Source: Candidatus Shapirobacteria bacterium
GTDB taxonomy: Bacteria > Patescibacteriota > Microgenomatia > UBA12405
Direction: 5' to 3'
Length of the DNA: 64,000 nt
Assembly: GCA_041661765.1 (NCBI GenBank)
Contig: JBAZTV010000002.1
Coordinates: forward strand, 74,212 to 138,211
The notes beneath the pieces were generated by a model that did no database searches, was not told the origin of the DNA, and saw nothing but the letters and a program-made list of their open reading frames with translations. The first letter of the stretch is position 1; the number at the start of each line of letters is the position of its first letter. The position numbers and the translations under genes are program-made. Shown here piece after piece: positions 9,139 to 27,720 of the stretch.

Positions 9139-10320
9139 ATGGTAAAAAGAGTTGCAATCTACGATCCCTATTTAGATACATTAGGTGGTGGCGAAAGATA
9201 TTGCCTAACAGTTGCTGAAATTTTATTAAAACATGGTTATAAAGTTGATTTATTTTGGTCTGGTGATCAAAAATTAATAGAAAAAGCCACCAAAAGATTT
9301 TCTTTAAAATTAGATGGTTTAAATTTAGTTAAAGATGTTTTTCAAATAAAACCAAAACAAATTGATTTTCTTGAAGAAGAACAAGACTTATCCAAATTTA
9401 TTAATAGATCTCTTAATCCTCAAAAAATCCATAAAAAATTTATTAATTTTATTAATAAATTAAAAACTACCAGCAAATACGACATTTTATTTTATTTAGG
9501 CGATGGTAGTATTCCTATTGTTTTTGCCAAACAAAACCTTCTTCACATCCAAGTTCCTTTTTCCGACAATCAAAATATTGTAAATAAGATAATTAACAAT
9601 TCAAAATTACTGTTATTTTCAAAAATAATTTGTAATTCTCAATTCACTGCCAAATTCTATCAAGACAGTCTTCCTTCCAAAATTAATATCATTTACCCGC
9701 CAGTTGATATTGATAAATTCGAACCATCAGATGATAAAAAGAATTTCATTTTATCAGTTGGTCGTTTTGATAATATTTTAAATGCCAAAAAGCAAGACAT
9801 TTTAATCGATGCTTTTAAAAAATTATTTGAAGAAGAAAAAGTAGCTAATTGGAGATTAATATTAGCCGGTGGCAGTCTTACTAATCCTGACGAAAATTCT
9901 TACTTAAAATATTTAAAAGAAAAAGCTTCCGGATTGCCAATTGAATTTATAATTAATCCAAGCTTTGATGATTTAAAAGAAATTTATTCAAAATCAAAAA
10001 TATATTGGCATGCTGCCGGATTTGATATTGACGAAACGACTCATCCAGAAAACACTGAACATTTTGGCATGACTGTTGTTGAAGCTATGGCTTCAGGTTT
10101 GGTCCCTGTTGTAATTGCTAAAGGTGGTATTCCCGAAATTATTTCCGATGGTGTCGATGGATATTTATGGACAATCATCGATGAATTAGTCTTTAAAACC
10201 AAAAGTTTAATAGAATCGCCAGACGATTTAAAAAGAATGTCAAAAAAAGCTATCGGTAAATGTCAAAAATTTTCAAAGGATAATTTTGAAAAAGATTTAC
10301 TTAATTTAATTAAAAATTAA
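9139..10320 (+). CDS. Glycosyltransferase family 4 (GT-B fold, glycos_transf_1).
   Basis: ATG at 9139; the track start at 9136 is TTG. C-terminal EHFGMTVVEAMASGLVPVVIAKGGIPEII is the GT4 E-X7-E region. Confidence 0.85.
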   Translation: MVKRVAIYDPYLDTLGGGERYCLTVAEILLKHGYKVDLFWSGDQKLIEKATKRFSLKLDGLNLVKDVFQIKPKQIDFLEEEQDLSKFINRSLNPQKIHKKFINFINKLKTTSKYDILFYLGDGSIPIVFAKQNLLHIQVPFSDNQNIVNKIINNSKLLLFSKIICNSQFTAKFYQDSLPSKINIIYPPVDIDKFEPSDDKKNFILSVGRFDNILNAKKQDILIDAFKKLFEEEKVANWRLILAGGSLTNPDENSYLKYLKEKASGLPIEFIINPSFDDLKEIYSKSKIYWHAAGFDIDETTHPENTEHFGMTVVEAMASGLVPVVIAKGGIPEIISDGVDGYLWTIIDELVFKTKSLIESPDDLKRMSKKAIGKCQKFSKDNFEKDLLNLIKN

Positions 10321-11201: not shown

Positions 11202-12017
11202 ATGAAGTTATCTATTATTATAATTACTTGGAATACTGCCAAAATAACTCAAAAATGTGTTCAGACAATTAATAAATTTCTAGACAATCCGGAAATTATT
11301 ATTGTCGACAATGGCTCTAAAGATAATACAGTTGAACTTCTTTCTCGAGAAAAAAATGTCAAAATAATAAAAAATAATTCCAATTTAGGTTTTTCCAAAG
11401 CCAACAATATCGGTTTCCAATACACTTCGAATGAATATATTCTTTTTATGAATTCTGATATCGAATTAATCAATGATTCTATTAATGATTTACTAAATTA
11501 CTTTAAAGACAAAAATAATATTGGTATTATTGGTCCAAAATTTTTAAATCCAGATCTCACTGTCCAATCATCAGTTTTCCCTAAGCAATCAGCCTTAAAT
11601 GCCTTTAAAGAATTTTTTTTATTTAAAAAAAATTCTTATTCAAAATATACTCCAAAAACCAATAACCCCATCAAAGTTTGGGCTATTTCTGGTGGTTGTA
11701 TTCTTACTCGAAAATCATTTTTTGAATCCATTGGTGGCTGGAATGAAAAATATTTTTTTTATTTTGAAGATTTAGACCTTTGTCGAAAAATAAATAAAAT
11801 TGGTAAAGACGTAATCTATTTTCCCAAATGTCAAATCATTCATCGTCATGGCGCTAGCGGTGTCAAATTAGCCGATTTTTCTAATCAATGGCGTCGTTTA
11901 ATACCCGGCAGTAAAAAATACCATGGTCTTTTTAAACACTATCTAATCAACTCAATCCTTTGGTCTGGTCAGAAATGGCAAAAAATATTTTCAAAAATAA
12001 ATTCTAAAGCAAATTAA
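11202..12017 (+). CDS. Glycosyltransferase family 2.
   Basis: LSIIIITWNTAKITQKCVQTI...IIIVDNGSKDNT...FMNSDIEL...YFEDLDLCRKI. Confidence 0.85.
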   Translation: MKLSIIIITWNTAKITQKCVQTINKFLDNPEIIIVDNGSKDNTVELLSREKNVKIIKNNSNLGFSKANNIGFQYTSNEYILFMNSDIELINDSINDLLNYFKDKNNIGIIGPKFLNPDLTVQSSVFPKQSALNAFKEFFLFKKNSYSKYTPKTNNPIKVWAISGGCILTRKSFFESIGGWNEKYFFYFEDLDLCRKINKIGKDVIYFPKCQIIHRHGASGVKLADFSNQWRRLIPGSKKYHGLFKHYLINSILWSGQKWQKIFSKINSKAN

Positions 12018-13615
12018 TTTACCAATAAATTAGGAACTTCCAAAAAATAATTTTTTGTTATTCCTTTGTATCTATCAAATTGATAGATTTTTTTCACTCC
12101 CACCTCCAAAAGTTTTTCAACCGCCTTATCATCACCAGCCACAAATAAATATCTAACAGTATTGCTTTCATCTCCTATTCCAAAATCTAATCTCCAACAC
12201 AAACTATCCTTTTTAATCCACCATTTATCACATTTATTATTTTCTAATGGTTTACTAGAAAGAATCTCATTTACATTAATAATTTCTGATTTGAGTCCAG
12301 CTTCTCTTAATAAAATCGATGATCCCTCTGGTACACCCCAAGTTCCACAAACACCAACTAATACTTTCGATTTATCTTTATTGTCAAAATATTTAATTAC
12401 TTCAGGCAAACCTAAAGCCGTCAACCCTGAAGATACAAAATAAGATTGATCATCTTTGGCATATATTGCTTTTTCTGGATTAAAGACCAACAAACAACTT
12501 TGTCCTAAAACTAAAACCATCAATAAACAAACAAACATGTCAATTTTTTTGTTCTTAAATGACAACAAAAAATCAACTCCAAAAACTGCAATCGCCAACA
12601 TTATTGGATAAGTAGCATAAATATATCTAGAAGCCATAACCTTACCAGATAAACAAATAGCCGCAGTTACAAAAACCCAATAAAATAACAACCATAAAAA
12701 TTTACGATTTTCTTTCGTAAAAATTAATTTAAATGTTCCAATCAAAACAAAAATCATTAAACCAGATAAGTATGCTCCCCAATATTGAAGAAGCAAATTT
12801 GAATAATTAAAAGCTGACAGGGGATTATCTATTAATCTTTTTATTATTTCTTGAGGTGAATATATCATCAATTTTTCCTTTTCTGCGATAGAACTCCATA
12901 AAATATGACCTCCAACTCTAAAACAGCTAATTACCTCTTTATAAAAAAACATCAAAATGATTAAACCCAAAGACATTAAAAAAATATTTTTAAATTTTTT
13001 ATTTTTTAAATAACCAATTACCCAAAAAGAGGCAATCATTAAATAAGTTACAAAAAATAATCTAGTAGTTGTTTTCGTTGCATAAGCAAACCCTAAAGAA
13101 ATTCCAGAAAATAACATACAAGCAATAAATTTTATTATTTTTCTTCTATTTTTTTCATCTAATATTTTTTTAGACAACACCAAAAACATTAAAGATAAAC
13201 TAGTAAAAGCCATTAATAAACTATCAGACAGAGCCATTCTTTCAACCAAAAAACCATAAGGGGCTATTAAAAATAGAAATAAATATATAATTGATTTTCT
13301 TAAATTAAAATATTTAGAAAAAATAATCATCCAACAAACCGCCGTCACCAAACCAGCAAATAAAGAGATTAGTCTTCCAGACAGTAAATAATTATTAATA
13401 AATGGCCCAAACGCCGATATCATCCAAAAAAATAGAGGAGTTTTTCCATCTTGAAGACTCAAATAAGCAAAATCTTTTGATTGATGAATCAAATCAGCCC
13501 AAGAAATATAAATACCTTCATCTAAATATAAAGGTGATTTTAAAATAAAAGAAAATCTCAAAACTAACAGCAAAACTACCAAAAGTGGAATAAAAATTTT
13601 GTTAATATTAGTCAC
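12014..13615 (-). CDS. GT-C membrane glycosyltransferase, ArnT/PMT-like (GT39/GT83-type), with a C-terminal soluble domain.
   Basis: GTG start at 13615, with an in-frame stop immediately upstream. First-loop acidic motif YLDEGIYISWADLIHQSKDF...DGKTPLFFW, as in the D-E loop of ArnT/PMT enzymes. About 11 TM. Convergent 4-bp stop overlap with 11202-12017. Confidence 0.75.
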   Translation of the reverse strand: MTNINKIFIPLLVVLLLVLRFSFILKSPLYLDEGIYISWADLIHQSKDFAYLSLQDGKTPLFFWMISAFGPFINNYLLSGRLISLFAGLVTAVCWMIIFSKYFNLRKSIIYLFLFLIAPYGFLVERMALSDSLLMAFTSLSLMFLVLSKKILDEKNRRKIIKFIACMLFSGISLGFAYATKTTTRLFFVTYLMIASFWVIGYLKNKKFKNIFLMSLGLIILMFFYKEVISCFRVGGHILWSSIAEKEKLMIYSPQEIIKRLIDNPLSAFNYSNLLLQYWGAYLSGLMIFVLIGTFKLIFTKENRKFLWLLFYWVFVTAAICLSGKVMASRYIYATYPIMLAIAVFGVDFLLSFKNKKIDMFVCLLMVLVLGQSCLLVFNPEKAIYAKDDQSYFVSSGLTALGLPEVIKYFDNKDKSKVLVGVCGTWGVPEGSSILLREAGLKSEIINVNEILSSKPLENNKCDKWWIKKDSLCWRLDFGIGDESNTVRYLFVAGDDKAVEKLLEVGVKKIYQFDRYKGITKNYFLEVPNLLVN

Positions 13616-14056: not shown

Positions 14057-15238
14057 ATGAAAAAAGTTTTTTTATTAGCCATTCTAATCCGGCTTTTAGT
14101 CATGCCTTTTTTTTATCACCCCGACATAAAATCTCAACATTTTCATTTTCAATTCTTTTCCCAAGGAGTTTTCAATATTTACGATTATTTAGACCAAAAT
14201 AAATCCACTCTAGGATACAAAGATACTTTTAATTATTTACCTTTAACCTACTACACTTTTGGACTCACTCAAGCCATCTCTAGACCGTTTTTAGGTAATA
14301 ATTTTTATCAATGGATTAATGATTGGGGAATAACCCAAAATGATTATTCCAATATGGTCTTTTTTATGTTGATATTAAAAATTCCCTATTTAATTTTTGA
14401 TTTATTAATCGGTTTTCTTTTATACAAAATATATCAAAATAAAAAAGTCTTATATTTTTGGCTTTTTAATCCAATTTCTATTTATTTAATCTATACTTTA
14501 GGTAATTTTGACATCATTCCGACATTTTTAACCCTTCTGGCTTTTTATTTTATAAAAAACAATAAGCAGTTAGCCTCATATCTTAGTATTGGTATAGCCA
14601 TTGCTCTCAAAATGTACCCCATCATGTTTTTACCTTTTTTATTTTTCTACGACAAAAAAAATATGTTCAAAAATATTAAATATGCTGTTTTTTCTTTAGC
14701 TCCTTTGTTTTTAAGCATTCTTCCATTTTTAAAACAAAAAAGTTTTTATGATTCATTTTTTGGTTCCGGACTCACTCAAAAAATTCTCGAATATAAATTC
14801 GCGGGTCTATCAATTTTCCCTATGATTTTTATTTTAATATTAATTGCCTACTTTTTTTCTAAATCAAAATATAAATTTGAAATTGCCATTTTGCAAACAT
14901 TTTTAATTTTTATCGGGTTAGTTAATTTTCATCCTCAATGGATTATGTGGTTTCTTCCTTTTATAATTATTTTTTTTATAAATTCAAAAATAAAAAACAA
15001 AATCTTTTTCACAATATTTTTTGCACTTATATTCGCTTATATTATTTTGTTTAATGATAATTATCTAACTTGGGGACATTTAATACCTATTGATTCAAAT
15101 TTTATTAACTTAACTTCACCCTATCAACTAATCGACTTAAGAACCTCAATTAATCCCTCCATTGTTCAAAAAAACATTCATAATTTACTTTTACTATTCG
15201 GTATTGTTGGATCATATTACTATGGCAAAAATAAGTAA
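14057..15238 (+). CDS. Polytopic membrane protein, family A (DUF2029/GT87-like?). Paralog of 417-1655.
   Basis: See 417-1655: YHPD, KMYP...LPF and FHPQW motifs; about 10 TM. Confidence 0.75.
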   Translation: MKKVFLLAILIRLLVMPFFYHPDIKSQHFHFQFFSQGVFNIYDYLDQNKSTLGYKDTFNYLPLTYYTFGLTQAISRPFLGNNFYQWINDWGITQNDYSNMVFFMLILKIPYLIFDLLIGFLLYKIYQNKKVLYFWLFNPISIYLIYTLGNFDIIPTFLTLLAFYFIKNNKQLASYLSIGIAIALKMYPIMFLPFLFFYDKKNMFKNIKYAVFSLAPLFLSILPFLKQKSFYDSFFGSGLTQKILEYKFAGLSIFPMIFILILIAYFFSKSKYKFEIAILQTFLIFIGLVNFHPQWIMWFLPFIIIFFINSKIKNKIFFTIFFALIFAYIILFNDNYLTWGHLIPIDSNFINLTSPYQLIDLRTSINPSIVQKNIHNLLLLFGIVGSYYYGKNK

Positions 15239-15824
15239 ATTATTAATTTTAGTCATCATTGAAATATTTTTTTTAGGATTATTATTTGTAATCTTATCTA
15301 CTATTTTTATTTGGGAACGACCAGGAGTTTCCCAAACATCATTTGAAAAAAATTTACCCCTAGATGTCAATCATTCTTATACCCAATCTATTATTTCCGA
15401 CAGAAACAATTTAAATTCCGTTTCTGTTTTACTAAAGAATCCTGGCTTGCAAAGTAGAGATATCGTTTATATAGAAATCCAAAATAATAATAAAGAAACA
15501 CTCAGATCTTTTAGTATTTCTGGTCGTGGTGTAAAAGATCCTGGTTGGTTAAATTTTAAATTTCCACCACTAAATTCAAAAAAAGGTGATATTTTTCTTT
15601 TAAAAATTAGTAGTAATAGTCAAAAAGATAATCTTCTTTATGTTTATGGTGATCAAAATACTCAAAATATTAATTTCAAAACCACTTTCACCGCTGAAAA
15701 TATAAAAGAATCGTTCAAGGACAATTTAAATCAACAAATAGCTAATTTTCAATCAAGAAATATTTTTCAAACCGTTTTTTATTTATTCTTAATTTTCCTA
15801 GTCGATATTCTTATCTTAATTTAA
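15222..15824 (+). CDS. Hypothetical bitopic membrane protein (N- and C-terminal TM with a central extracytoplasmic domain).
   Basis: ATG at 15222. The track start at 15162 is TTG and overlaps the upstream gene by 77 bp in another frame. No recognisable motif. Confidence 0.5.
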   Translation: MAKISKLLILVIIEIFFLGLLFVILSTIFIWERPGVSQTSFEKNLPLDVNHSYTQSIISDRNNLNSVSVLLKNPGLQSRDIVYIEIQNNNKETLRSFSISGRGVKDPGWLNFKFPPLNSKKGDIFLLKISSNSQKDNLLYVYGDQNTQNINFKTTFTAENIKESFKDNLNQQIANFQSRNIFQTVFYLFLIFLVDILILI

Positions 15825-15847: not shown

Positions 15848-17590
15848 ATGAAAAATAAATCGATTATTTTTAAAATTTCCCTGGCTATTCTTCTTGTTTT
15901 CTCTTTATTTCTTTATTTATACAAAAACACCACAATTCCACCTTCTTTATATTCAGACGAAGCCGATATTAATTACCAAGCCTTTATTTTTAATAAATAT
16001 CACACCGATTATTACGGCAATAAATTTCCTATTCATTTTCATTCATATTCTGACTGGCAACCATCTTTTTTTATTTATTCAGTTGCTTTAACTCAAAAAA
16101 TAATCGGCCACACTGATTCTTCAGTCAGAATTCCAGCGGCTGTTTTTGGAACTTTAACAGTTCTGGTTTTTTGTCTAATTATCAAACTTTTATTAAACAG
16201 TAATATTTGGTCAATTATCGGCGGATTTTTGCTGACCATTTCTCCCTGGCTTTTTCACTACAGTCGTACTGGTTTTGCTGTAACTAATATGCTTTCTTTA
16301 ACCCTTTTAGGTATTTATTTTTGGATAAAATTTATTAAAAATAATCAAGTCAAAAATCTTTTTATTTCCATTATTTCTTTTTCTCTGCTAACTTATTCCT
16401 ATAGTACCGCTAAATTACATCTAATTTTTATTTTTTTAACCCTTTATTTAATTTGGTTTAAAATTATCAATAAAATTTCTCTCAAAAATAAATTAATTAC
16501 CATTTTTTTAGTAATTTTAATTTGTTTACCAGTATTTTCAGACACCCTCAAAGGTCGTGCCGGCTATCGTTTTTCCTACATTAACATTTTTAGCGATCCA
16601 ACAATTAGTAAAACTGTTGATTATTCTCGTCAAGAGGATTCTGCTATGGTTTATGGCCCTCAAATAGGTCTTAAACCTCTATTTATTTCTAAAATTTTTT
16701 ATAACAAACCAGTTCAGTGTTTAGAAATGTTTACTAAAAATTATTTTTCTTCCTTTTCAACCGATTTTCTCTTTTTAAAAGGCGACGGTAATCTACGACA
16801 AGGTATTCAAACCGTTGGTAATTTATTATTTCCTGATTTCTTTTTAATTATCATTGGAATTTCTATAGTTTTCGTCAAAAAATCATCAAATAGTAAATTT
16901 TATCTATTTTTCCTAATCAACTTAATTCTCTCTCCAATTCCATTTGCTTTAACTCGCGATTCTCTCTATCCTCATGCCACTCGTCTAATCTTGATGCTAC
17001 CGTTTTTAATTTTCTTTTCCATTCTTGGACTTAAACAAATTTTTGAAATTACTAAATCCAAATTTTTAATTGCTTTTATTCTATTTTTGTATGTAATCTG
17101 CTTCGGTCGATTTATCCACCAATATTATTTTCATTATCCAAACATTTCTGCTCGTGATTGGCATTATGGAATGAAACAAGCCATTATCAAAGTTCAAAAT
17201 AAAAATTATCAAAAAATCTATTTTATTAATTCTTATGAGCCATTTACTCCTTTCTTTTTAAATTATATTGAATATCTACCATTAAAACAAAATATTTCTC
17301 CTGCTTTATCATTAGTTTCTGAAAACAATCAATTTTTTACTGGTATGCAGGCTGATAACACATATTATCTCGGCAATATTGAATGGTCTGTTTTGTTTAA
17401 TAATCCTCCTTCAAATGCTCTTTTTATTATTCCCAATCAGGACTTAATTAGAGCTCAAAACAGTCTTAACGATTACAATAAAAATCATCAAGACAAAATT
17501 AATTTTAATCAAATAGATAAAGTCTCTAAAAAATATACTGAACAAGAAGAATTTTATTTAGTCACTTTTGATCTAGCAAAAACTAAATAG
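15848..17590 (+). CDS. GT-C membrane glycosyltransferase, ArnT/PMT-like.
   Basis: YSDEADINYQAFIFNKYHTDYYGNKFP in the first extracytoplasmic loop. About 12 TM plus a C-terminal soluble domain. Paralogous to 20910, 22570 and 24194. Confidence 0.75.
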   Translation: MKNKSIIFKISLAILLVFSLFLYLYKNTTIPPSLYSDEADINYQAFIFNKYHTDYYGNKFPIHFHSYSDWQPSFFIYSVALTQKIIGHTDSSVRIPAAVFGTLTVLVFCLIIKLLLNSNIWSIIGGFLLTISPWLFHYSRTGFAVTNMLSLTLLGIYFWIKFIKNNQVKNLFISIISFSLLTYSYSTAKLHLIFIFLTLYLIWFKIINKISLKNKLITIFLVILICLPVFSDTLKGRAGYRFSYINIFSDPTISKTVDYSRQEDSAMVYGPQIGLKPLFISKIFYNKPVQCLEMFTKNYFSSFSTDFLFLKGDGNLRQGIQTVGNLLFPDFFLIIIGISIVFVKKSSNSKFYLFFLINLILSPIPFALTRDSLYPHATRLILMLPFLIFFSILGLKQIFEITKSKFLIAFILFLYVICFGRFIHQYYFHYPNISARDWHYGMKQAIIKVQNKNYQKIYFINSYEPFTPFFLNYIEYLPLKQNISPALSLVSENNQFFTGMQADNTYYLGNIEWSVLFNNPPSNALFIIPNQDLIRAQNSLNDYNKNHQDKINFNQIDKVSKKYTEQEEFYLVTFDLAKTK

Positions 17591-19194
17591 AAACAAAAAA
17601 TTATTGTTGATAATGTTATTAAATCCAATATTTTATTTAAAATAGTTTCTTCATACTTAATTGTAATTTCATGTTTTCCATTTGGCACCAAAAATTGAAT
17701 TTGACCATAAGGTTTACTTGCTATTAAATTTAATTTTTCACCATCAATAAATCCTTTCCATCCAGGAAAATAATATTTATTATAATTTAAAACCAATTCA
17801 GACTCAGAATCTGTTATAAATTTTGTCTCCAAGCTATTAACCAAAGTTATATTTTCAATCGCTTCACTGACTGGATAAACTCGGTCATAAATCTGAGTCG
17901 GTCTAATTTCAGTAGTTTTTGGTAATCGTAAATATTCTTCTTGAAGAGTGAGATACTCCTCACTTGGAGTCGGAACTGGAATATAACGATTAATATAATA
18001 ACTATCATCTCTATTTAAAAAATCATGTGGCCTAAAACGGGGTGTGTTTATAACCATAGAAACCATAATAATTATCACCGCCAATATATTTGAGTATTTA
18101 AAGTTTTTAATTAAAATAACTAGTAACGACGAAGCAAAAACAATCATAGTTAAAAATCGCCAGGGAAATTGAAAATAAGCAATAAGCGGAATATGTTCCC
18201 AAAACCAATAAGACCTAAAGTTCATCATAAACACTGAAACTACAACCAAAAATAAACTCCAAATTGATATTTTTTTAATTTTTAAAGAAATTTTAGAAAA
18301 ACGAAAAATTATAAAAATCGTCGCTACTATTAAAACTATCAAATTAATTTCTCCAACAAAAAAAGACATTCCATCATAAGGCCCAGGCACCGACGCTCCA
18401 TATCCCCAAAAAGGAGTTATTAGTTGTTTTAATGTCGGAAAATGATCAAAAAAATTAAAAACCGTACTATATTTCATTAAATTACTTTCCAAAAGAGCTG
18501 GTAACCAAAAATATATACTCCCTATTAATCCCAAGAAAAACAAAAAGAAAAACTCTTTTATTTTTTCCTTCTTCATAACTAAAAGTGCAAATAATAAAGC
18601 AAATGGAATAAACATATAAGAAACAATATTGTGAGTCAAGATCAATGCTGTTATTGATAACCCCCCAATTCCTACCCACTTAAAATTCTCCTTTTTACTT
18701 TTTACTTCAGCTAATCTAATTAAAGAAAATATTATTAATGGTAAAAACACAAAAGCCAAAGACTCGCCCAATGCTCCTCTGTCATAAATATCAGTTGAGC
18801 GATATGGAGTATAAATATAAAGCACTGCTGCCGCCATACCCACAAATTTTCCTGATAAATGTCTTGCTAAAAAATACATTGTAATCGCGGAAATTAATAA
18901 ACTAAAGATAAAAACAGCTTTGATACTATATACAAAATTCAATCCTAATAAATGAAATATTTCACCTAAGTAATAGGGGAGTGGAAATATAAAGTTAAAT
19001 AAAGGATAACCAAACCCAAAACTCAAATCAGACACATATCTAGGTGGTATCTGTCCTTCGGTAACAGCTTGATCCATTTGCTGCAACCAAGCAATGTGCA
19101 TGTCATCAGATGCTCCAAAAAAACCAGGCCTTATTAAGGCCAACATCGCAGGAACTACTAATAAAACCAATATTAATAATTCTTTTATTTTCAT
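17554..19194 (-). CDS. Polytopic membrane protein, family B (GT-C-like?).
   Basis: ASDDMHIAWLQQMDQAVTEGQIPPRYVSDLSFGFGYPLFNF...FQFPWRFL. Paralog of 1648-3372 and 19191-20876. Its 3' end overlaps 15848-17590 convergently by 37 bp. Confidence 0.75.
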   Translation of the reverse strand: MKIKELLILVLLVVPAMLALIRPGFFGASDDMHIAWLQQMDQAVTEGQIPPRYVSDLSFGFGYPLFNFIFPLPYYLGEIFHLLGLNFVYSIKAVFIFSLLISAITMYFLARHLSGKFVGMAAAVLYIYTPYRSTDIYDRGALGESLAFVFLPLIIFSLIRLAEVKSKKENFKWVGIGGLSITALILTHNIVSYMFIPFALLFALLVMKKEKIKEFFFLFFLGLIGSIYFWLPALLESNLMKYSTVFNFFDHFPTLKQLITPFWGYGASVPGPYDGMSFFVGEINLIVLIVATIFIIFRFSKISLKIKKISIWSLFLVVVSVFMMNFRSYWFWEHIPLIAYFQFPWRFLTMIVFASSLLVILIKNFKYSNILAVIIIMVSMVINTPRFRPHDFLNRDDSYYINRYIPVPTPSEEYLTLQEEYLRLPKTTEIRPTQIYDRVYPVSEAIENITLVNSLETKFITDSESELVLNYNKYYFPGWKGFIDGEKLNLIASKPYGQIQFLVPNGKHEITIKYEETILNKILDLITLSTIIFCFYLVFARSKVTK

Positions 19195-20876
19195 AATAAA
19201 TATTTTTTCTTACTAAAAAAAATTATAATCATACTTATTAATGTTAACAAACTTAAGATATCTCCTATTTGCCTCGGAATAGTTTTTTCCAGTTTAACAA
19301 TTATTTGATGCGAACCTTTATTCAAGTTGAAACTTATTTGTCCAAAACAAAAATCTTGGTTACTGCAATCATTATGGTTAAAAGAAACTGGCAAATTATC
19401 AACAGTCACTTTCATTCCCGGAAAATCAAATATAGGTAATCTTATTTTGGTAACATCACTATCCACATTTATTTCCCCAGTCTGGTAATTACTCCCTTTT
19501 TTGTAATTTTTTACCTCTGCTTTTCCCTCAGTAATTTCCGGAACTTCAGGTGCTTTATAATTTGGCGGTAAAACAGCATTACTTGGTAAATAATCAAAAA
19601 TACTTGCGGTTTGTTGTTTTAAAAATTCTTGACCAGTTAATAATTGCTGATCATTAATCTCTATCCACTTCTGTGGTTTGAAGAAATTTCCATATAAGCA
19701 AAATAATAATAAAACTGTCACTACCATTATTATTTTTTTACCCTTACTACTAAAATAATTAATTGCATATCCAGATAATAATGATAAAAGAAAAGCATTA
19801 ACCACTAAAAATCTCCAAGGAAATTGGAACATAGCCATAAAACCAAAACTTTCCCAAATAAATGCCGATCTTTGATGAATTAGAAAAATAGTTAACAAAC
19901 TTATTCCAGCCAAAACCAAAATAATAATACTATTTTTCTTAGATTTTTTATAATTTTTTATGGCTAAAATTACTCCTATTAAAGATAGTATCCAATGTAT
20001 TTGTCCTACTGAAAGCGATAAATCATCACCTGGGCCCAATTGAGATGAACCATATCCCCAATGATTTGAAATAAATAATTGATATAAATTTACAAAATGT
20101 TGTCGATAATCAAAATAACCACCAGTCATACTATCGAGATGGATATAACCTCTTTCAAAAATTAAAGGCACTATAAAAAATGAAGCCAATCCTGCTCCAA
20201 TTAAAAAGGCCCACAAAATTTTCCATAATTTTTTAATATTTTTTTCTTGTATTAATAAAACAAGTATCCATATTCCTAATATTGGAAAAAACGCCACAGA
20301 CATTAAATTATGCGTCACAAATAAACTAAAAATTGCCAAACCAAAATATAAAACATTATTTTTACCTAAACCTTTAATAATTCGATACGAAAATAAAAAC
20401 AAAAATGGGAATATTGCTAAAGATAAAAATTCACCCAACGACCCTCTTACATAAACTTGAACTGCTCTTACTGGAGCATAAACATACAACAAAGAACCAG
20501 TAAGTGCGACTATTGAATTAGTAAATAAAGTAGACAGTAACCAAAACATTCCTATTCCAGATATTATGAAACCTAGTATAAAAAGTATTTTTACTGAGTC
20601 AATATATTGAAATCCTAAATTATGAAAAACAGTTCCTAAATAATAAGGACCAGGTGAATAATATAAAAACAACGGATACCCAAAACCATACCCCATATCA
20701 GGCACCCAACGGCAAGGTATTTGACCATCCTCAAAACATTTCTCCATTTCATAAATTCGAAAATATTGCATACTATCCTGAATATTATGAATTCCTGGTT
20801 TAAGAATTGTCACAAAAGCTGGAATCGTAAATAAAACTACAGCTAATAGCCAAATACAACGTTTCATATTAATCAT
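19191..20876 (-). CDS. Polytopic membrane protein, family B (GT-C-like?).
   Basis: IQDSMQYFRIYEMEKCFEDGQIPCRWVPDMGYGFGYPLFLYY...FQFPWRFL. The 4-bp overlap with 17554-19194 suggests translational coupling. Confidence 0.75.
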   Translation of the reverse strand: MINMKRCIWLLAVVLFTIPAFVTILKPGIHNIQDSMQYFRIYEMEKCFEDGQIPCRWVPDMGYGFGYPLFLYYSPGPYYLGTVFHNLGFQYIDSVKILFILGFIISGIGMFWLLSTLFTNSIVALTGSLLYVYAPVRAVQVYVRGSLGEFLSLAIFPFLFLFSYRIIKGLGKNNVLYFGLAIFSLFVTHNLMSVAFFPILGIWILVLLIQEKNIKKLWKILWAFLIGAGLASFFIVPLIFERGYIHLDSMTGGYFDYRQHFVNLYQLFISNHWGYGSSQLGPGDDLSLSVGQIHWILSLIGVILAIKNYKKSKKNSIIILVLAGISLLTIFLIHQRSAFIWESFGFMAMFQFPWRFLVVNAFLLSLLSGYAINYFSSKGKKIIMVVTVLLLFCLYGNFFKPQKWIEINDQQLLTGQEFLKQQTASIFDYLPSNAVLPPNYKAPEVPEITEGKAEVKNYKKGSNYQTGEINVDSDVTKIRLPIFDFPGMKVTVDNLPVSFNHNDCSNQDFCFGQISFNLNKGSHQIIVKLEKTIPRQIGDILSLLTLISMIIIFFSKKKYLL

Positions 20877-20909
20877 TATAGCTTAATTAAATGTTAACAT
20901 TATACAAAC

Positions 20910-22586
20910 ATGTCTAAGTTCTACACGATTATTTTTGGATTCATTTTAGTCATTGGATTACTAACTCGTTTTATTAATTTAGATAAATTTCCAGTTGCCC
21001 TAAATTGGGATGAAATTAGTCATGGTTACAACGCCTACAGTTTAATTAATACTGGTAAAGATCAATGGTCAACATCTTGGCCCATTTTTAACTTCCGAGC
21101 CTACGGCGATTATCCCACTATTCTCAATATGTATCTTTCCATGCCTTTTATTTATTTTTTCGGTCTCAACGAATGGACAGTTCGAATTGTTTCTGCCTTT
21201 TGTGGCTTTGGCTTAATTATTATCGCTTTTTTCTTAGGTCAAGAAATTTTTAAAAACAAGAAAAAATCTCTTTTATTAATGTTATTAGTCGTACTATCTC
21301 CTTGGACATTTTTTCCATCGCGCGGTGTTTTTCAGTCAACAGTTGCTCAATTTTTTTTCTCTCTCGGACTTTTATTTTTAATCAAAGCCATCAAAAAAAT
21401 AAAATTTCTTCCACTCGGGATTTTCTTTTTTTCTATTTCTACCTACGCCTATCACAATACTAAAATTGTCGTTCCAATTTTACTTTTAACTTACTTCCTT
21501 ATTTTCTTTAAAGAGATTAAACAAAAAATTTCAAAACATAAAAATTTTTTTACAATCAGTTTATTAGTTCTTTCCATTTTAGTAATCCCTCAATTAATCA
21601 ACACTTTTAATAAAGAAGCTCAAGCCCGAAGTCGCTGGGTTTTTATTATTAATCCAGCATCTATTAATGAAATTGAAAATAATCGTAATATTTATCAAGG
21701 CAGTCAATTAGTCGCCAAACTAAAATATAATCGAGTTACTCTTTTTAGCACTACCGTTTTCAAAAATTATTTAGATTTTGTTAATCCTAAAATTTTATTT
21801 TTCAACAGCACTCAAAACTTTCAATTTAATATCCCCAACACTGGCGTTCTTTATTCTGTTTACTTACCGTTCTTTTACATCGGCCTAATAATTTTAATTT
21901 TAAAATCCATAAAAAAAAGCTCCCCTGAAAATAAAAAATATATTTTTCTTAATTTTTGGTTTTTAATCGGTCTAATCCCCGCAGTTATCACAATCGGTGA
22001 TTTTCCTATTATTCGGGCCATGACAATTTTGCCGCTTCCTCAAATCTTTATAGTTTATGGTTTTTTTAAAACCATTTCCTTTTTAAAAAATTCCAAAACA
22101 AAAACAATTTTTACTATTTTATTTTTAATAATTCTAATTATTCAATCATTTTCATATTTCAAAAATTATTTTAACGACTATTCCCAAAATTATTCTAGTT
22201 CTTGGCAGTACGGGTATAAAGAAACTGTCAATTATATAAAAGAAAATTATAATAGTTACGATCAAATTATTTTTACTAAAAAATATGGCGAAGCCCATGA
22301 ATTTGTTTTATTTTATTGGCCATGGAACCCAAAATCTTACCAAAACGACCCAAATTTAAATTGGGATTTCCATGCCGATTGGTATTGGGTAAATGCATTT
22401 GATAAATTTAAATTTATCAATGATTGGGAAATCAAAAAAGAAACTGAAAAGTTAGATAAAAAAACCCTTTTAATCACCTCTCCAGGCAATTATAATAAAA
22501 GCAATAGCGCATTAATCAAAACCGTTTATTTTCTCAACCAAACACCGGCTTTTGATATTTTAAGCATCAATGATCAAAAACAATAA
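20910..22586 (+). CDS. GT-C membrane glycosyltransferase, ArnT/PMT-like. First of a tandem triplet.
   Basis: NWDEISHGYNAYSLINTGKDQWSTSWPIFNFRAYGDYP...RIVSAF. Confidence 0.8.
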   Translation: MSKFYTIIFGFILVIGLLTRFINLDKFPVALNWDEISHGYNAYSLINTGKDQWSTSWPIFNFRAYGDYPTILNMYLSMPFIYFFGLNEWTVRIVSAFCGFGLIIIAFFLGQEIFKNKKKSLLLMLLVVLSPWTFFPSRGVFQSTVAQFFFSLGLLFLIKAIKKIKFLPLGIFFFSISTYAYHNTKIVVPILLLTYFLIFFKEIKQKISKHKNFFTISLLVLSILVIPQLINTFNKEAQARSRWVFIINPASINEIENNRNIYQGSQLVAKLKYNRVTLFSTTVFKNYLDFVNPKILFFNSTQNFQFNIPNTGVLYSVYLPFFYIGLIILILKSIKKSSPENKKYIFLNFWFLIGLIPAVITIGDFPIIRAMTILPLPQIFIVYGFFKTISFLKNSKTKTIFTILFLIILIIQSFSYFKNYFNDYSQNYSSSWQYGYKETVNYIKENYNSYDQIIFTKKYGEAHEFVLFYWPWNPKSYQNDPNLNWDFHADWYWVNAFDKFKFINDWEIKKETEKLDKKTLLITSPGNYNKSNSALIKTVYFLNQTPAFDILSINDQKQ

Positions 22587-24210
22587 ACTTTTTCTAATAA
22601 TTATTTTTTTAATTGCCTTTTTCTTAAGGTTTTACAAGGTAGGGGAATATCCAACTTTTCTTTGGGATGAAGCTTCACTCGGTTACAATGCCTATTCAAT
22701 TATTGAAACTGGTAAAGACGAATATGGCCAAACTTTACCAATTATTTTTAAATCATTTGGCGACTATAAACCTGGTCTTTATGTTTATTTAGCCATTCCA
22801 TTTATTAAAATTTTTGGACTAACAACCACCACTACTCGTTTACCGTCAATAATTTTAGGTTCTCTTCTGCCAATTCTAATCTACTTTCTAATTAAAGAAA
22901 TCAACCCCAAAGCCCACAAGACCGCTATTTTTGCCGCTCTTATTACTGTCTTCAATCCTTATTCAATTCATTTTTCTCGTGGCGCCTGGGAAAGTAATGT
23001 CTTAACTTTTGAATTAGTATTGGCTTCTTTTCTCTTTTTTAAATACATCAACAAAAAAAATGATAAATATCTTTTTTGGTCCGCAATTATTTTTGGTTTG
23101 ACACTTTTTACTTATCAGGCCGGAAAAATGATCAGTCTTTTTTTGATCGTTATTTTATTTTTAATCAATTTCAAAATAGTCAACAAAAAAAATATCAAAA
23201 GTTTATTTTTAAATTTTATTTTACCCCTTCTGATTTTTTCAGCCCCCATAGTTTATGGCTTATTTTTCGGAAGTAATGCCAATCGCTTAAAAGTCGTCAG
23301 TCTTTTTTCTTATCCTCGCTCCGCTCAAGAGTCCAATATTATCATTAATGAAAGTAACCAATTAGATTATGAAATTTTCCATAATCACACTTCTTTTTTT
23401 GGTCGCGGATTTTTACTTCGCTATTTTAATCATTTTTCGCCCAAATTCTTAGCCTTTGAAGGTGATTGGCAAAATCCTCGACAATCAGCTCCTTATATTG
23501 GTGTAATTCTTTATCCAAGTTTAATTTTTCTAATCTTAGGTATATTTTTTGCCTTAAGTCGCCCAAAAATTGACAAAATTAATATTTTCTTCTTACTCTG
23601 GCTTTTAATTGCCCCAATTCCTGCCGCTCTTACTCGCGACACTGTTCAAGGCCTTCGTTCTATGTCTTTTTCCATTCCTTTAATTTATTTTATTTCTCTT
23701 GGTATTTATTTCATCGTCAACAAATATAAAAATATTTTTCTCTATTGCTTGATTTTTGGTGCTTATTTACTTTCTTTCATTTATTACAGTGACCTTTATT
23801 TGAATCACATGATTAAAAAAAGTCCCGATGATTTTCTTTATGGCTATCAACAATCAATGGAATATTTGGTCAAAAATCAAAATAAATTTCAAAACATTAT
23901 CATGAGTGATTATTACGGCCAAGCATATATTTTTTATCTTTTCTATTCAAAATATCCGCCACAATCTTATCAGCAACAAGCTAAACTAATCGAAAATTTA
24001 TCAGGTGACACCGGCAAAATCGAGCAAATTGATAATATTAAATTTACCACTCCTGACTATAATTCAATCAAAAATCAACCCAACACATTAGCAATTTTTA
24101 ATTACAACGAAATTTATCGCCAATTTATCGATAAATCCAATAATTTTAAAGACTTCTTACCATTAAGCCCAATCAATAATATTTCCACTTTTTATGCTTA
24201 CCAAAATTAA
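22570..24210 (+). CDS. GT-C membrane glycosyltransferase, ArnT/PMT-like. Second of the tandem triplet.
   Basis: LWDEASLGYNAYSIIETGKDEYGQTLPIIFKSFGDYKPGLYVYLAIPFIKIFGL. Overlaps neighbours by 17 bp. Confidence 0.8.
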   Translation: MIKNNKLFLIIIFLIAFFLRFYKVGEYPTFLWDEASLGYNAYSIIETGKDEYGQTLPIIFKSFGDYKPGLYVYLAIPFIKIFGLTTTTTRLPSIILGSLLPILIYFLIKEINPKAHKTAIFAALITVFNPYSIHFSRGAWESNVLTFELVLASFLFFKYINKKNDKYLFWSAIIFGLTLFTYQAGKMISLFLIVILFLINFKIVNKKNIKSLFLNFILPLLIFSAPIVYGLFFGSNANRLKVVSLFSYPRSAQESNIIINESNQLDYEIFHNHTSFFGRGFLLRYFNHFSPKFLAFEGDWQNPRQSAPYIGVILYPSLIFLILGIFFALSRPKIDKINIFFLLWLLIAPIPAALTRDTVQGLRSMSFSIPLIYFISLGIYFIVNKYKNIFLYCLIFGAYLLSFIYYSDLYLNHMIKKSPDDFLYGYQQSMEYLVKNQNKFQNIIMSDYYGQAYIFYLFYSKYPPQSYQQQAKLIENLSGDTGKIEQIDNIKFTTPDYNSIKNQPNTLAIFNYNEIYRQFIDKSNNFKDFLPLSPINNISTFYAYQN

Positions 24211-25816
24211 TAAATTACCATTAATAATTATTCTTATCGTTGCCATTTTAATTCGTTTTATTAATATTGGCTCCATGCCATCACTTAATGCCGACGAGGC
24301 TGCTCTCGGTTACAATGCCTACTCCCTTATCGAAACCGGTAAAGACGAACACGGCATCTCTTGGCCTCTTCATTTTAAATCATTTGGGGATTACAAACCG
24401 GGCGGCTATGTATATTTAGCCATACCTTTCGTCAAAATTTTTGGCCTCACACCATTGGCTGTCAGATTGCCAAATTTGATACTTTCTATATTAACTATCC
24501 TTTTTTTATACAAATTAATTTTCCTTTTATCAAAAAATAATAAACTAGCAGTTTTAACTGCTGCTGTTTTAACTTTTTCACCATGGCACATTCATTTTAG
24601 TCGCGGCGCCTGGGAATCTTCCGCAGCCCTCTCTTTTATTATAATTGGCACCTATTTTTTCTTCAAATCAATCAAAGAAAAATTTTTATTAAATTTTAAT
24701 TTGTTTGTTGTTCTTTATGTTTTATCACTTTACATTTATCATTCAGCTCGTCTAATTGCTCCACTTTTAGCATTAACTTTGATTGTTCTTTATTTCAAAA
24801 ATTTAATTAAAAAATTCCCTCAAATTTTAATTCCTCTTTTTATTGGTGTTCTTTTGGCCATACCGGTAACTTATTCCTTTTTACAAAATGGAGGAACCGC
24901 CCGTATCGGTGGTGTTGGCTTAACTGCCGATCAAGGCCCAATTTGGCGTGCTAACGAGCTTTTAAATCATCATAATAATGTCAAATTAATTAATCGCATC
25001 ATGCACAACAAAAGATTTCTTTATTTAATTTCTTGGAGTCAAAAATATACTTCTCATTTTGATTTAAATTTTTTAGCTATTAATGGCGACGAAGTCCCTC
25101 GTTCTAAAGTTCCCGAAATGGGTCAAATTTATTTAATTGAGTTGCCCTTTCTTTTTCTCGGTCTCATTTTTCTTCTCAAATCTACGATCTATGATCGACG
25201 ATCTAAAATCTTTCTTATTGCCTTTTTATTAATCGCCCCAATTGCTTCATCCTTAACCTATCAAGCACCATCCGCCCTCAGAGCCCTTTCTATGGTTGTT
25301 CCCTTATCAATTTTAATTGCTCTTGGAATTTACTCTTTCTTTTCTTTTTTTAAAAATAAAAATATTTTAAAGGTAATTTCCATCATATTCATTACTATCT
25401 ATGGATATTTTGTCACCTATTATTTTGATGCTTATTTTGTTCATTATCCTAAAAGATACCCTTATGCCTGGGAATATGGCTTTGATCAATTAGTCCCTTA
25501 TTTGGAAAGTCAAAAAAATAATTACGACAAAGTTTACGTCACCGACAAATATGACCAACCATATATTTTATTTTTATTTTTTTCTAAATATCCGCCAGAA
25601 AAAATTCAACAAGAAATAAAACTAACTTCCCCTGATCAATATGGTTTTTCTACTGTCCTAAATTTCGATAAATACATTTTTCAAAAAATTGAATGGGGTA
25701 AGATTCCTCCAAATTCACTAGTTGTAACCAGTGATGAATTAGTTCCACTTGAACCTTTTAAAATTATTAATTTCCCAAATGGACAACCAGGGTTTAAAAT
25801 CTATTCAAAACAATGA
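24194..25816 (+). CDS. GT-C membrane glycosyltransferase, ArnT/PMT-like. Third of the tandem triplet.
   Basis: NADEAALGYNAYSLIETGKDEHGISWPLHFKSFGDYKPGGYVYLAIPFVKIFGL. About 60-70% identical to 22570-24210 in this loop. Confidence 0.8.
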   Translation: MLTKINKLPLIIILIVAILIRFINIGSMPSLNADEAALGYNAYSLIETGKDEHGISWPLHFKSFGDYKPGGYVYLAIPFVKIFGLTPLAVRLPNLILSILTILFLYKLIFLLSKNNKLAVLTAAVLTFSPWHIHFSRGAWESSAALSFIIIGTYFFFKSIKEKFLLNFNLFVVLYVLSLYIYHSARLIAPLLALTLIVLYFKNLIKKFPQILIPLFIGVLLAIPVTYSFLQNGGTARIGGVGLTADQGPIWRANELLNHHNNVKLINRIMHNKRFLYLISWSQKYTSHFDLNFLAINGDEVPRSKVPEMGQIYLIELPFLFLGLIFLLKSTIYDRRSKIFLIAFLLIAPIASSLTYQAPSALRALSMVVPLSILIALGIYSFFSFFKNKNILKVISIIFITIYGYFVTYYFDAYFVHYPKRYPYAWEYGFDQLVPYLESQKNNYDKVYVTDKYDQPYILFLFFSKYPPEKIQQEIKLTSPDQYGFSTVLNFDKYIFQKIEWGKIPPNSLVVTSDELVPLEPFKIINFPNGQPGFKIYSKQ

Positions 25817-26640: not shown

Positions 26641-27720
26641 ATGGATAAAAAAATAAAAATCGCCATTGATATTTCTCCAACTCAAGATGGAAATGCTGTT
26701 CGTGGTGTTGGATACTACACATCAAATTTAGTTTCCGCCCTTCAAAAAGAAATTAAAAATAACCCAGATTATAAAAACTATCAAATTGATCTAATTAAAA
26801 ATATCAACGATCTATTGTCTACAACCTATAACCTAATTCACTATCCCTATTTCGATCCTTTTAAAACGACTTTGCCTAAAAAAACTGAAATACCCACTAT
26901 TGTCACCGTTCACGATCTTATTCCTATTCAATTCAAAAGTCATTTTCCGGTCGGCATTAAAGGCAACATTAAGTGGCTTTTACAAAAAAAACGTCTTTTA
27001 AAAGTCGATAAAATTTTAACTGTTTCTCATTACTCTAAAAACATTATTAACAGAATCACTAAATATAAATTAAACGATATTTTTGTCACCTATTTGGCCG
27101 CCGATAAAAATTTTAAAGTTTCATCCGATTCAAAAAAATTAAAAGAAATCAAAGATAAATACAAGCTTCCGTCAAAATTTATCCTATTTATTGGAGATAT
27201 TAATTGGAATAAAAATATTCCAACATTAGTCAAAACCTGTTCAAAACTAAATTATCCATTAGTAATTGTTGGCTCTGCTGCTACCAAAAAAGATGTTCCA
27301 AATCATCCTTGGACTCAAGATCTTCTTTGGCTTCAATCGCAAAAATCTTCAAATTTAATTTTCACCGGTTTTGTTCCAGATGAAGAACTTCCTTTTATTT
27401 ATAATCTAGCCACCGTCTATTGCCAACCATCTTTTGCTGAAGGTTTTGGTCTGCCATTAATTCAAGCCATGCAATCCGGTTGTCCTGTGGCATACAGTCA
27501 AGATTCTTGCCTAGATGAAATTATGGACTCCAATGGTCTTAAATTTGATCCCCATTCTCCAAAAAAATTAGAAAAAGTTTTAAAAAAATTTTGGAATAAT
27601 CAAAATATAAGACAAAAATATGCTAAACTTGGGCTAATCCGCGCCAAGAATTTTAATTGGCAAAACACTGCTCTTCAAACACTTACCCTTTATAATTTGG
27701 TGTTATCAAATGAAAAATAG
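26641..27720 (+). CDS. Glycosyltransferase family 4 (glycos_transf_1).
   Basis: FAEGFGLPLIQAMQSGCPVAYSQDSCLDEI (E-X7-E region). N-terminal acceptor domain. Confidence 0.85.
   Translation: MDKKIKIAIDISPTQDGNAVRGVGYYTSNLVSALQKEIKNNPDYKNYQIDLIKNINDLLSTTYNLIHYPYFDPFKTTLPKKTEIPTIVTVHDLIPIQFKSHFPVGIKGNIKWLLQKKRLLKVDKILTVSHYSKNIINRITKYKLNDIFVTYLAADKNFKVSSDSKKLKEIKDKYKLPSKFILFIGDINWNKNIPTLVKTCSKLNYPLVIVGSAATKKDVPNHPWTQDLLWLQSQKSSNLIFTGFVPDEELPFIYNLATVYCQPSFAEGFGLPLIQAMQSGCPVAYSQDSCLDEIMDSNGLKFDPHSPKKLEKVLKKFWNNQNIRQKYAKLGLIRAKNFNWQNTALQTLTLYNLVLSNEK

Follow-up and report, generated by a model that had tools for sequence, protein, structure and literature searches.

Three membrane protein paralogs in a Candidatus Shapirobacteria glycosylation island as probable GT-C glycosyltransferases of the PF10131/YfhO lineage

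What is the task of three related, polytopic membrane proteins that are encoded in a region crowded with glycosyltransferase genes? The question is raised by a stretch of 64,000 nucleotides (nt) from a Candidatus Shapirobacteria genome (GenBank assembly GCA_041661765.1, contig JBAZTV010000002.1, positions 74,212 to 138,211), hereafter called the window, which has a G+C content of about 29%, is densely coding, and provides all coordinates given below unless a locus is named. The proteins correspond to open reading frames (ORFs) at 19191-20876 (-), of 561 amino acids (aa); at 17554-19194 (-), of 546 aa and directly downstream of the first; and at 1648-3372 (+), of 574 aa and with a GTG start. 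A sequence-only reading of this DNA had placed them in a five-member family co-amplified with ArnT-like enzymes and had suggested that they form a second, undescribed class of lipid-linked-sugar transferases or polymerases. We propose instead, with a probability of roughly 0.72, that the three genes encode GT-C_A-fold glycosyltransferases of the PF10131/YfhO lineage, non-redundant with one another, which would move polyprenyl-phosphate sugars onto a surface glycan or glycoprotein outside the membrane.

The three ORFs have exactly the boundaries first proposed for them, and their paralogy is borne out: 19191-20876 and 17554-19194 are 30% identical (BLASTP E value of 7e-73), 17554-19194 and 1648-3372 are 29% identical (E value of 1e-52), and 19191-20876 and 1648-3372 are 36% identical in a multiple alignment. 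A hidden Markov model (HMM) of the family, applied to all window ORFs with every filter off (--max), recovers these three members only, with 1648-3372 scoring 625 bits, and the motifs that had been picked out by eye are literally present, as (Q/H/S)D(S/D)M, GQIP(C/P)R(W/Y), G(F/Y)GYPLF, and QFPWRFL. The remaining two members of the proposed grouping, 4778-6466 and 54315-55880, show no detectable sequence relationship to the family: BLASTP returns E values of 0.3 to 0.5, and hhalign, applied to single sequences and to profiles of their own homologs, gives probabilities below 1% (0.7% for 4778-6466 and 0.8% for 54315-55880). Both are ruled out as members by BLASTP, the family HMM, and hhalign, and they are related to the family at the level of the GT-C superfamily only.

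The start of the third paralog merits a comment, as its public gene call is a 542-aa product (2128-3756 of locus L081) that would cut off the first transmembrane helix (TM1) kept in all paralogs; a start at the GTG of 1648, with 8 bp of overlap with the upstream gene, suits the family alignment better. The N-terminal 59 residues of this protein match DUF6520 above threshold (28.7 bits), a match that is absent from the other 65 aligned members and is probably spurious.

The first line of evidence on function is the placement of the family among known domains. PF10131 (PTPS_related) is a member of the Pfam GT-C clan CL0111 and is listed there as of unknown function (PMC7801869). Its gathering cutoff of 26.4 bits is passed by both 19191-20876 (28.3 bits) and 17554-19194 (27.4 bits), and 51 of 66 aligned family members match it (E values of ≤1e-3, the best being 4.3e-16), so that PF10131, one of several candidates named beforehand, was the correct one. 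Matches to YfhO (PF09586) occur in 16 of the 66 members (E values of ≤1e-3; best, 2.8e-12) and matches to PMT_2 in 13. In the window proteins themselves, YfhO attains 12.9 bits on 17554-19194, across the C-terminal beta domain and a transmembrane (TM) segment and below its cutoff of 28.5 bits, and does not match the other two; PMT_2 yields 22.8 and 25.3 bits, below its cutoff of 26.1 bits, or nothing. Pfam reports neither PMT nor MIR in the three family proteins, and no NCBIfam model matches the family. The two leading families meet in the relative P0121, which scores 104 bits on PF10131 and 63.5 bits on YfhO, the latter over its N-terminal core (YfhO profile positions 55 to 401).

Relatives are abundant, with more than 3,200 in a search of 5.8 billion proteins and, when a family profile was run against 1.84 billion cluster representatives, 17,592 matches with E values of ≤1e-3 and 5,660 with E values of ≤1e-30. 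The closest come from Candidatus Woesebacteria (78%), Shapirobacteria (73%), and Daviesbacteria (about 50%), and their NCBI names are "hypothetical" or "glycosyltransferase family 39 protein," with precomputed PF10131, PF09586 (YfhO), or PF13231 domains. Because PF10131 already stands in the GT-C clan, the family is a catalogued but uncharacterized one and not a new enzyme class, and the three genes belong to a subfamily specific to Microgenomates, with both the Pfam family and the enzyme superfamily above it already known.

The second line of evidence is structural. An AlphaFold2 model of 19191-20876, built from the 66-sequence alignment, has a predicted local distance difference test score (pLDDT) of 91.0 and a predicted TM-score (pTM) of 0.92, and the first 38 places of a Foldseek search against the PDB are all occupied by GT-C enzymes (AglB, AftA, STT3, PglB, ArnT, AftD, EmbA/B/C, Pmt4, and DPY19), mostly at a probability of 1.0, with transporters below 0.15. 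We follow the definition of GT-C enzymes as having a core of 7 to 13 TM helices and a structured extracytoplasmic loop after TM1 (PMC11127046). The model has such a polytopic core, with 12 TM helices (TM1 at residues 2 to 25, TM12 at residues 533 to 554), and TM1 is followed by a 65-residue loop (residues 26 to 90) containing short helices; in the predicted structure, the fold class is clearly of the GT-C_A type. The fold matches, together with the membership of PF10131 in the GT-C clan, support the type of enzyme that the sequence-only reading had in mind, a GT-C or lipid-linked-sugar transferase, and a transporter family is not indicated.

The overall architecture was likewise anticipated in its main parts, namely a short TM1, an outside loop, 12 TM helices, and a soluble domain; the soluble domain, however, is not C-terminal but is followed by TM12 as an anchor, leaving both termini predicted to lie inside. 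In 19191-20876 this extracytoplasmic domain spans residues 399 to 532 (19281-19682 [-]), between TM11 and TM12, and consists of helices followed by a beta-sandwich (residues 447 to 529) that we propose as an acceptor-binding module. Loop 1 (residues 26 to 90; 20607-20801 [-]), the proposed catalytic loop, carries invariant D34, Q52, P54, R56, G66, and P68, a near-invariant D60, and a C47-C55 pair. Further outside loops cover residues 245 to 291 and 334 to 352, and the cytoplasmic loops are short, with lysine and arginine clustered in them and no acidic residue in any. This outer-face topology is predicted from the modeled structure and from sequence patterns, among them the behavior of two cysteine pairs: of 195 family sequences, 138 have both C47 and C55 of loop 1 and 57 have neither, and 45 have both C504 and C510 of the soluble domain and 150 have neither, with no pair ever represented by one cysteine alone. 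Such perfect covariation is what disulfides in an extracytoplasmic compartment would be expected to show, and it supports the placement of both regions outside.

The same 195 sequences, which derive from 80 genomes and whose ortholog classes we tabulated as A to E, served to gauge residue conservation. Invariant throughout these classes are D34, P54, R56, G66, P135, R144, G145, E149, P157, H189, S278, and the Q-F-P-W-R run at residues 351 to 355; D35, D60, P237, E241, H260, S337, and W341 are nearly so. The motif residues proposed from one stretch of DNA are thus conserved in other genomes, well beyond what chance would give. D34, whose codon in the class A gene (19191-20876) lies at 20775-20777 (-), corresponds to the acidic residue that GT-C enzymes conserve, as DxD or a modified form, in an extracytoplasmic loop, and we propose it as the catalytic acid/base or a metal ligand. 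The Q-F-P-W-R run (19812-19826 [-] in the class A gene) is positioned at the outer start of TM10 by the AlphaFold2 helices and the positive-inside pattern, and its R355 may bind the phosphate of the donor. Under the predicted topology, the invariant polar residues lie in loops or at helix ends that are assigned to the outer face. Alignment by hhalign to a neighboring PMT_2 protein sets D34 opposite a "WDE" motif; this match is weak (E value of 0.003, probability of 11%) and is a hint only.

Some of the motifs as originally worded need adjustment. In the D-D motif, the first aspartate is invariant but the second is not, 19191-20876 itself having D-S. Residue 55 is cysteine in classes A, B, and D and proline in class C, which accounts for the "C/P" alternative noted earlier, and residue 57 is tryptophan in classes A, B, and D but phenylalanine or tyrosine in class C, including 17554-19194, so that the Arg-Trp pair is not universal. 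Residue 62 divides along the same line (glycine in A, B, and D; serine in C). Loop 1 is the most conserved region both within and between classes, with 38 to 55% identity between classes against 19 to 42% elsewhere, and a comparison of classes A and C shows the lowest identity, 21%, in the soluble domain; this distribution fits a shared catalytic loop combined with class-specific acceptor recognition. Since none of the tabulated classes has lost any of these invariant polar residues, every copy appears to be catalytically competent.

With fold and residues in view, two alternatives can be weighed. One is that the proteins are transporters, flippases, or scaffolds rather than enzymes, which agrees with their being polytopic membrane proteins and with the weak match of a neighboring PMT_2 protein to the "flippase activity-associated protein Agl23" model; the Foldseek probabilities below 0.15 for transporter folds and the invariant outer-face Asp, Arg, Glu, and His residues, which are typical of GT-C active sites, make this barely tenable, and we rejected a transporter or flippase role on the Foldseek result. 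The other is the previously undescribed class of lipid-linked-sugar transferases, apart from the named GT-C families, that had first been suggested. In its favor, there is no NCBIfam model for the family, no solved relative is detectable by sequence, the literature searched contains no characterized PF10131 member, and TM1 and the loop 1 motifs fall outside the region matched by PF10131. The idea is largely refuted, and very improbable, given the placement of most relatives in PF10131 and thus in clan CL0111, the GT39 names of relatives at NCBI, the YfhO score of P0121, the existence of a nearest characterized lineage in YfhO, and an ordinary GT-C_A fold.

The third line of evidence is the distribution of the family. 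A scan of GTDB representatives (one genome per species) found at least 548 places that encode it, and the counts that follow are from the best 80. All 80 loci are in Microgenomates-type metagenome-assembled genomes (MAGs), of Shapiro-, Woese-, Davies-, and Collierbacteria. Many of the records are titled "uncultured Gammaproteobacteria" or "Pseudomonadales" (e.g., L003, L007, and L009) and show Microgenomates-type synteny, proteins of 45 to 50% identity, and small genomes, one chromosome having 615 kb; their titles are probably placeholder taxonomy.

In these genomes the family forms codirectional tandem arrays, with three copies at 41 of the 80 loci, four copies at 13, and two at 11. Clustering at 45% identity yields a class A of 79 sequences, a class B of 44, a class C of 40, and a class D of 7, and the most common array order is A-B-C (22 loci), to which 7 more loci add D; 20 loci have a class A copy only within the stretch examined. 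In the window, 19191-20876 belongs to class A and 17554-19194 to class C (76% identity to its best class C match), and 1648-3372 is a singleton nearest to classes A and B (best identities of 43% and 39%, respectively), so that the window has an A-C pair without class B and a third copy 15 kb off. The same A-C pair occurs with the same flanking PMT-type genes in another Shapirobacteria locus (L001). Divergent from the pair in the window are three tandem genes for PMT/PMT_2-type GT-Cs (20910-22586, 22570-24210, and 24194-25816, all [+]; Pfam PMT and PMT_2), whose products are 77 to 84% identical to their L001 counterparts, and convergent with the class C gene is a PMT_2-type GT-C gene (15848-17590 [+]; 47.4 bits), the 3' ends overlapping by 37 bp.

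The classes differ at approximately 65 to 70% of residues (30 to 36% identity) and yet are orthologous across genera, and a recent local amplification was rejected on these grounds. What had been taken for co-amplification with the surrounding enzymes is more aptly viewed as a tandem array whose order Microgenomates have conserved. Judged by sequence, the duplication is old and its copies have been maintained, which argues for non-redundant roles.

Gene fusions add to this picture. A WbbL-like GT2 is fused to the N terminus of class A in 4 of the 80 genomes (L016, L027, L046, and L049; ORFs of about 815 to 830 aa at about positions 7150 to 9650) and in the cluster representatives P0123, P0130, P0133, P0136, and P0181; it is a homolog of window gene 7426-8334 (E value of 4e-21) and, because the family is N-in, would be cytoplasmic. 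L037 and P0125 each have classes B and C joined in a single ORF, and two copies are present in P0121. Elsewhere the family is fused to PMT_2 (P0172) or to a TMEM260-like O-mannosyltransferase domain with tetratricopeptide (TPR) repeats (P0263). In the window, the stop of 19191-20876 and the start of 17554-19194 overlap as ATGA; when 17300-21200 was scanned for promoters and terminators, the counts were no different from those in shuffled sequence, and the scan was uninformative on operon structure.

The fixed order, the ATGA coupling, the B-C fusions, and the two copies in P0121, together with an N-in/C-in topology that permits fusion, could also mean that the cotranslated paralogs (A and C here, A-B-C elsewhere) are subunits of an obligate hetero-oligomeric GT-C complex like Pmt1-Pmt2 or EmbA-EmbB. 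We regard this refinement of our proposal as possible but hold it tentatively, in that class A stands alone at 20 of the 80 loci within the stretch examined, the window lacks class B and has its third copy at a distance, and full catalytic residue sets in all classes fit independent enzymes equally well.

In mycobacterial arabinan synthesis, some GT-Cs of the Emb and Aft families add sugars repeatedly to form polymers, and the paralogs might by the same token be processive polymerases that make a homopolymer from polyprenyl-phosphate sugars. Emb and Aft enzymes are indeed among the fold matches, and the beta-sandwich domain could hold a polymer, but three or four distinct conserved classes in a fixed order fit single additions better, and the sequences carry no specific sign of processivity. 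This reading is unlikely, and the polymerase role voiced at the outset has found no specific support.

The genes around the arrays point to the kind of pathway in which the family may work. Within ±8 kb, the most frequent neighbor is the family of 4778-6466, a Pfam-orphan membrane protein of about 570 aa (57 of 80 loci), followed by PMT_2 GT-Cs (54 loci), a Wzx flippase (52 loci), and a GT2 of about 250 aa with subthreshold similarity to ArnC, PgfS, and dolichyl-phosphate (Dol-P) hexose transferases (49 loci); GT87-type GT-Cs, GT4 enzymes, and WbbL-like GT2 enzymes also surround the arrays. The Wzx gene and the orphan lie as a pair directly downstream of the array in 25 loci, with Wzx one gene further in 9 more. 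The window has the same order, 1648-3372, then 3345-4799 (+) for a Wzx-type flippase (Polysacc_synt_3; PF13440 E value of 3e-45), then 4778-6466 (+), which puts 1648-3372 in the last-of-array position.

Two window genes come into consideration as donor synthases. The ortholog of the frequent GT2 neighbor (neighbor cluster 1), at 27710-28513 (+), encodes a 267-aa candidate that is 88% identical to its L001 counterpart and has weak matches to ArnC, PpgS, and AglJ; the representative of its cluster scores 62 bits on ArnC and 50 bits on Dol-P hexose transferase, all under the curated cutoffs. The clearest lipid-monophosphate-sugar donor enzyme in the window, to judge by its sequence, is the 313-aa PgfS/ArnC-like polyprenyl-phosphate sugar synthase at 57200-58141 (-), which scores 208 bits on PgfS (residues 4 to 309 on profile positions 2 to 304 of 308) and 97.5 bits on ArnC, both under the equivalog cutoffs. 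It is part of an Arn-like module (54315-59024) with a DegT aminotransferase (55921-57189 [-]), an NAD epimerase/dehydratase (58134-59024 [-]), and 54315-55880 (+), a divergent PMT_2/ArnT-type GT-C that, as noted above, is not a family member; this last protein has no direct Pfam match and 23 homologs, and 8 of 22 aligned members match PMT_2 (best E value, 1.9e-10). The module suggests a lipid-linked amino sugar donor.

On this basis we can outline how the paralogs would act. A GT2 enzyme would make a polyprenyl-phosphate sugar at the cytoplasmic face of the membrane, and the lipid-linked sugar would then be flipped; on the outer face, each paralog would transfer the sugar to a growing cell-surface glycan or glycoprotein. 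Catalysis would depend on the invariant D34 of loop 1, in a catalytic or metal-binding role, with R56, R144, E149, H189, and the Q-F-P-W-R cluster as a putative pocket for the donor phosphate and sugar, in which R56, R144, H189, and R355 would contact the phosphate, and the variable beta-sandwich domain after TM11 would hold the acceptor. The paralogs would most likely add different sugars or linkages in succession to one glycan, possibly as a complex; such successive, non-redundant additions are suggested by the fixed class order, the translational coupling, and the fusions. We infer the donor type, the residue roles, and the sequential action from established GT-C enzymes and multicomponent transmembrane glycosylation systems (PMC8035078, PMC11127046, PMC12041528). 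YfhO-family GT-Cs transfer sugars from undecaprenyl-phosphate (C55-P) sugars to teichoic acids and to Ser/Thr-rich protein regions (PMC8035078, PMC12041528), and the streptococcal paralogs PgfM1 and PgfM2 differ in what they contribute to the same glycoproteins (PMC12041528), offering by analogy a precedent for paralogs with different parts in one process.

Whether the acceptor is a glycan or a protein is a question within this proposal. The paralogs may O-glycosylate surface proteins in their Ser/Thr-rich regions, like PgtC2, PgfM1, or PMT/TMTC: proteins are glycosylated by members of the YfhO family (PMC12041528), P0263 combines the paralog family with a TMEM260-like O-mannosyltransferase and TPR repeats, and the window encodes both a PMT_2 plus TPR protein of TMTC-like architecture (39005-40783) and the PgfS-like synthase. 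The Wzx flippase, the many cytoplasmic GT2/GT4 enzymes, and the oligosaccharyltransferase-like protein at 4778-6466 point instead to a lipid-linked oligosaccharide or polymer, the fusion of GT2 to class A ties the family to glycan-building enzymes, and no candidate acceptor protein was identified. A protein acceptor is accordingly a sub-case that we entertain with reserve.

The protein at 4778-6466, the conserved partner directly after Wzx, is arguably more novel than the three-paralog family. Its own family exceeds 1,500 proteins and is devoid of Pfam domains, and the protein itself has no Pfam or NCBIfam match. The AlphaFold2 model (pLDDT of 91.8) is nonetheless recognizably oligosaccharyltransferase-like, with Foldseek matches to STT3, AglB, and PglB (E values of 9e-9 to 9e-6; TM-score of about 0.5) and an additional match of its soluble domain to the C-terminal domain of AglB. 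A WWDYG motif is not visible in the 61-sequence consensus of the family, and PF02516 is unmatched. As modeled, the protein may transfer or ligate glycans en bloc. Cytoplasmic GT2/GT4 enzymes, Wzx, an ordered A-B-C(-D) array, and a GT-C of this type may together make up a bacterial counterpart of the logic of ALG enzymes and oligosaccharyltransferase (OST) in the lumen of the endoplasmic reticulum, in which a lipid-linked oligosaccharide is flipped, extended on the outside by successive GT-Cs drawing on polyprenyl-phosphate sugars, and transferred en bloc by an oligosaccharyltransferase-like enzyme; the en bloc acceptor might be a protein or the cell wall, and the paralogs might form a physical assembly line. 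The array and its association with Wzx and this GT-C allow the scheme and do not establish it, and we consider it doubtful.

Several observations weigh against our proposal that the paralogs are PF10131/YfhO-lineage sugar transferases acting in turn. The PF10131 scores are marginal, and the alignments extend over profile positions 1 to about 300 of 621 (protein residues of about 70 to 390); 1648-3372 reaches 13.6 bits, which is under the cutoff. The Foldseek matches are weak (E values of about 1e-3, TM-scores of 0.3 to 0.47), with no solved structure close, and sequence searches of the PDB with a single protein and with profiles gave no meaningful match. The literature searched held no functional study of any PF10131/PTPS_related member. 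The clearest donor synthase, 57200-58141, sits 36 kb from the A-C pair, and the window ORFs scanned include no small PF04138-type protein that would serve as a GtrA-type flippase. Lastly, the sequences fit sequential action and a hetero-oligomeric complex alike.

The wider surroundings are those of the glycosylation island that had been described, with ArnT/PMT_2-like enzymes, as shown by the PMT/PMT_2, GT2/GT4, and Wzx genes: about 13 of some 60 window genes are of GT-C type, and at least 12 are GT2/GT4 genes. Besides those already mentioned, the GT-C genes include two GT87-like ones (351-1655 and 14057-15238) and a PMT or PMT_2 gene (12014-13615). Twice among the glycosyltransferases, a B12-binding radical S-adenosylmethionine (SAM) enzyme is followed by a SAM methyltransferase (29411-31509 and 36576-38970 [+]), and these pairs may carry out unusual sugar methylation. 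At 52305-54331 lie genes for a DegT aminotransferase (+), a hexapeptide acetyltransferase (-), and an FdtA/WxcM-like isomerase (-), a set typical of dTDP-3-acetamido-3,6-dideoxyhexose synthesis. A DmpF-like acetaldehyde dehydrogenase, an HMGL/DmpG-like aldolase, and a thiamine-pyrophosphate enzyme (59006-62780 [+]) adjoin the sugar-modification genes and might supply a branched or acylated sugar, and a CofD-family (2-phospho-L-lactate transferase-like) gene (40814-41800 [-]) adjoins the PMT_2-TPR gene. Three ORFs, 47507-49015 (502 aa), 34479-35378 (299 aa), and 15162-15824 (220 aa), all (+), have no Pfam or NCBIfam match; a counterpart of the last is encoded at L001 of Shapirobacteria.

Like other Patescibacteria, Microgenomates are uncultured bacteria with reduced genomes and are believed to be attached to hosts, for which reasons surface chemistry probably matters for the lifestyle of the whole group. 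We found no functional study of GT-C expansions in Patescibacteria in the literature searched. The GT-C placement, the ortholog classes, the candidate catalytic residues, and the link to Wzx and an oligosaccharyltransferase-like protein together give a testable outline of a major uncharacterized surface-glycan pathway. The result is a refinement of annotation and not a new principle; a first functional anchor for PF10131 would follow from it.

How, then, does the family compare with systems already known? The most distant parallel, drawn by analogy only, is with the eukaryotic lumenal ALG3/9/12 enzymes and STT3, where paralogous GT-Cs, a flippase, and an oligosaccharyltransferase-like enzyme also occur together, as they are encoded together here; the ALG3 structure, however, is a weak match (E value of 0.7) to the model of 4778-6466 and not to the family, whose matches are GT-C_A enzymes. 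With the ArnT/PMT_2/GT39-GT83 enzymes (PF13231 and PF02366) the family shares a clan, a fold class, and the weak PMT_2 matches of 22.8 to 25.3 bits. It differs from GT39/PMT in that loop 1 has D-D or D-S in place of D-E, MIR domains are absent, and the PMT and PMT_2 cutoffs are not reached, and from ArnT/PMT_2 in that its soluble domain is a different beta-sandwich followed by the last TM helix; the true PMT_2 genes of the window cluster separately. GT136 (ORF12 of the ribofuranose three-component system; PMC11127046), likened by architecture alone, has a periplasmic domain after TM1 and a beta-rich domain after TM11, and there too a GT2 makes a C55-P-sugar that is flipped before GT-C transfer (PMC11127046); GT136, though, is a single enzyme in a three-gene module, in contrast to the paralog array of Microgenomates.

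The closest comparisons are with the two families from which our placement takes its name. Like other PF10131 proteins, the class A and C proteins have a polytopic GT-C core, and they pass the gathering cutoff, with most relatives matching, but the Microgenomates subfamily is short (546 to 574 aa) and is set apart by a loop 1 signature, (Q/H)DD...QIP(C/P)R(W/F/Y)...G(Y/F)P. From YfhO the class A and C proteins differ in being about 300 residues shorter than the 835-position profile; they have no adjacent CsbB-type GT2, the GtrB/PgfS-like GT2 being 36 kb off, the window ORFs scanned include Wzx but no GtrA-type flippase, and the family occurs in arrays of two to four genes beside Wzx and the oligosaccharyltransferase-like protein. 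In common with YfhO, they have the GT-C core, a proposed catalytic loop on the outside, and a predicted extracytoplasmic domain near the C terminus, and 16 of 66 relatives match its profile. Members of the YfhO family include Bacillus subtilis and Staphylococcus aureus YfhO (N-acetylglucosamine on lipoteichoic acid), Listeria monocytogenes YfhO (wall teichoic acid), and streptococcal PgtC2, PgfM1, and PgfM2 (protein O-glycosylation) (PMC8035078, PMC12041528), and it is in this family that a GT-C works together with a GT2 C55-P-sugar synthase and that the members of paralog pairs contribute distinctly (PMC8035078, PMC12041528).

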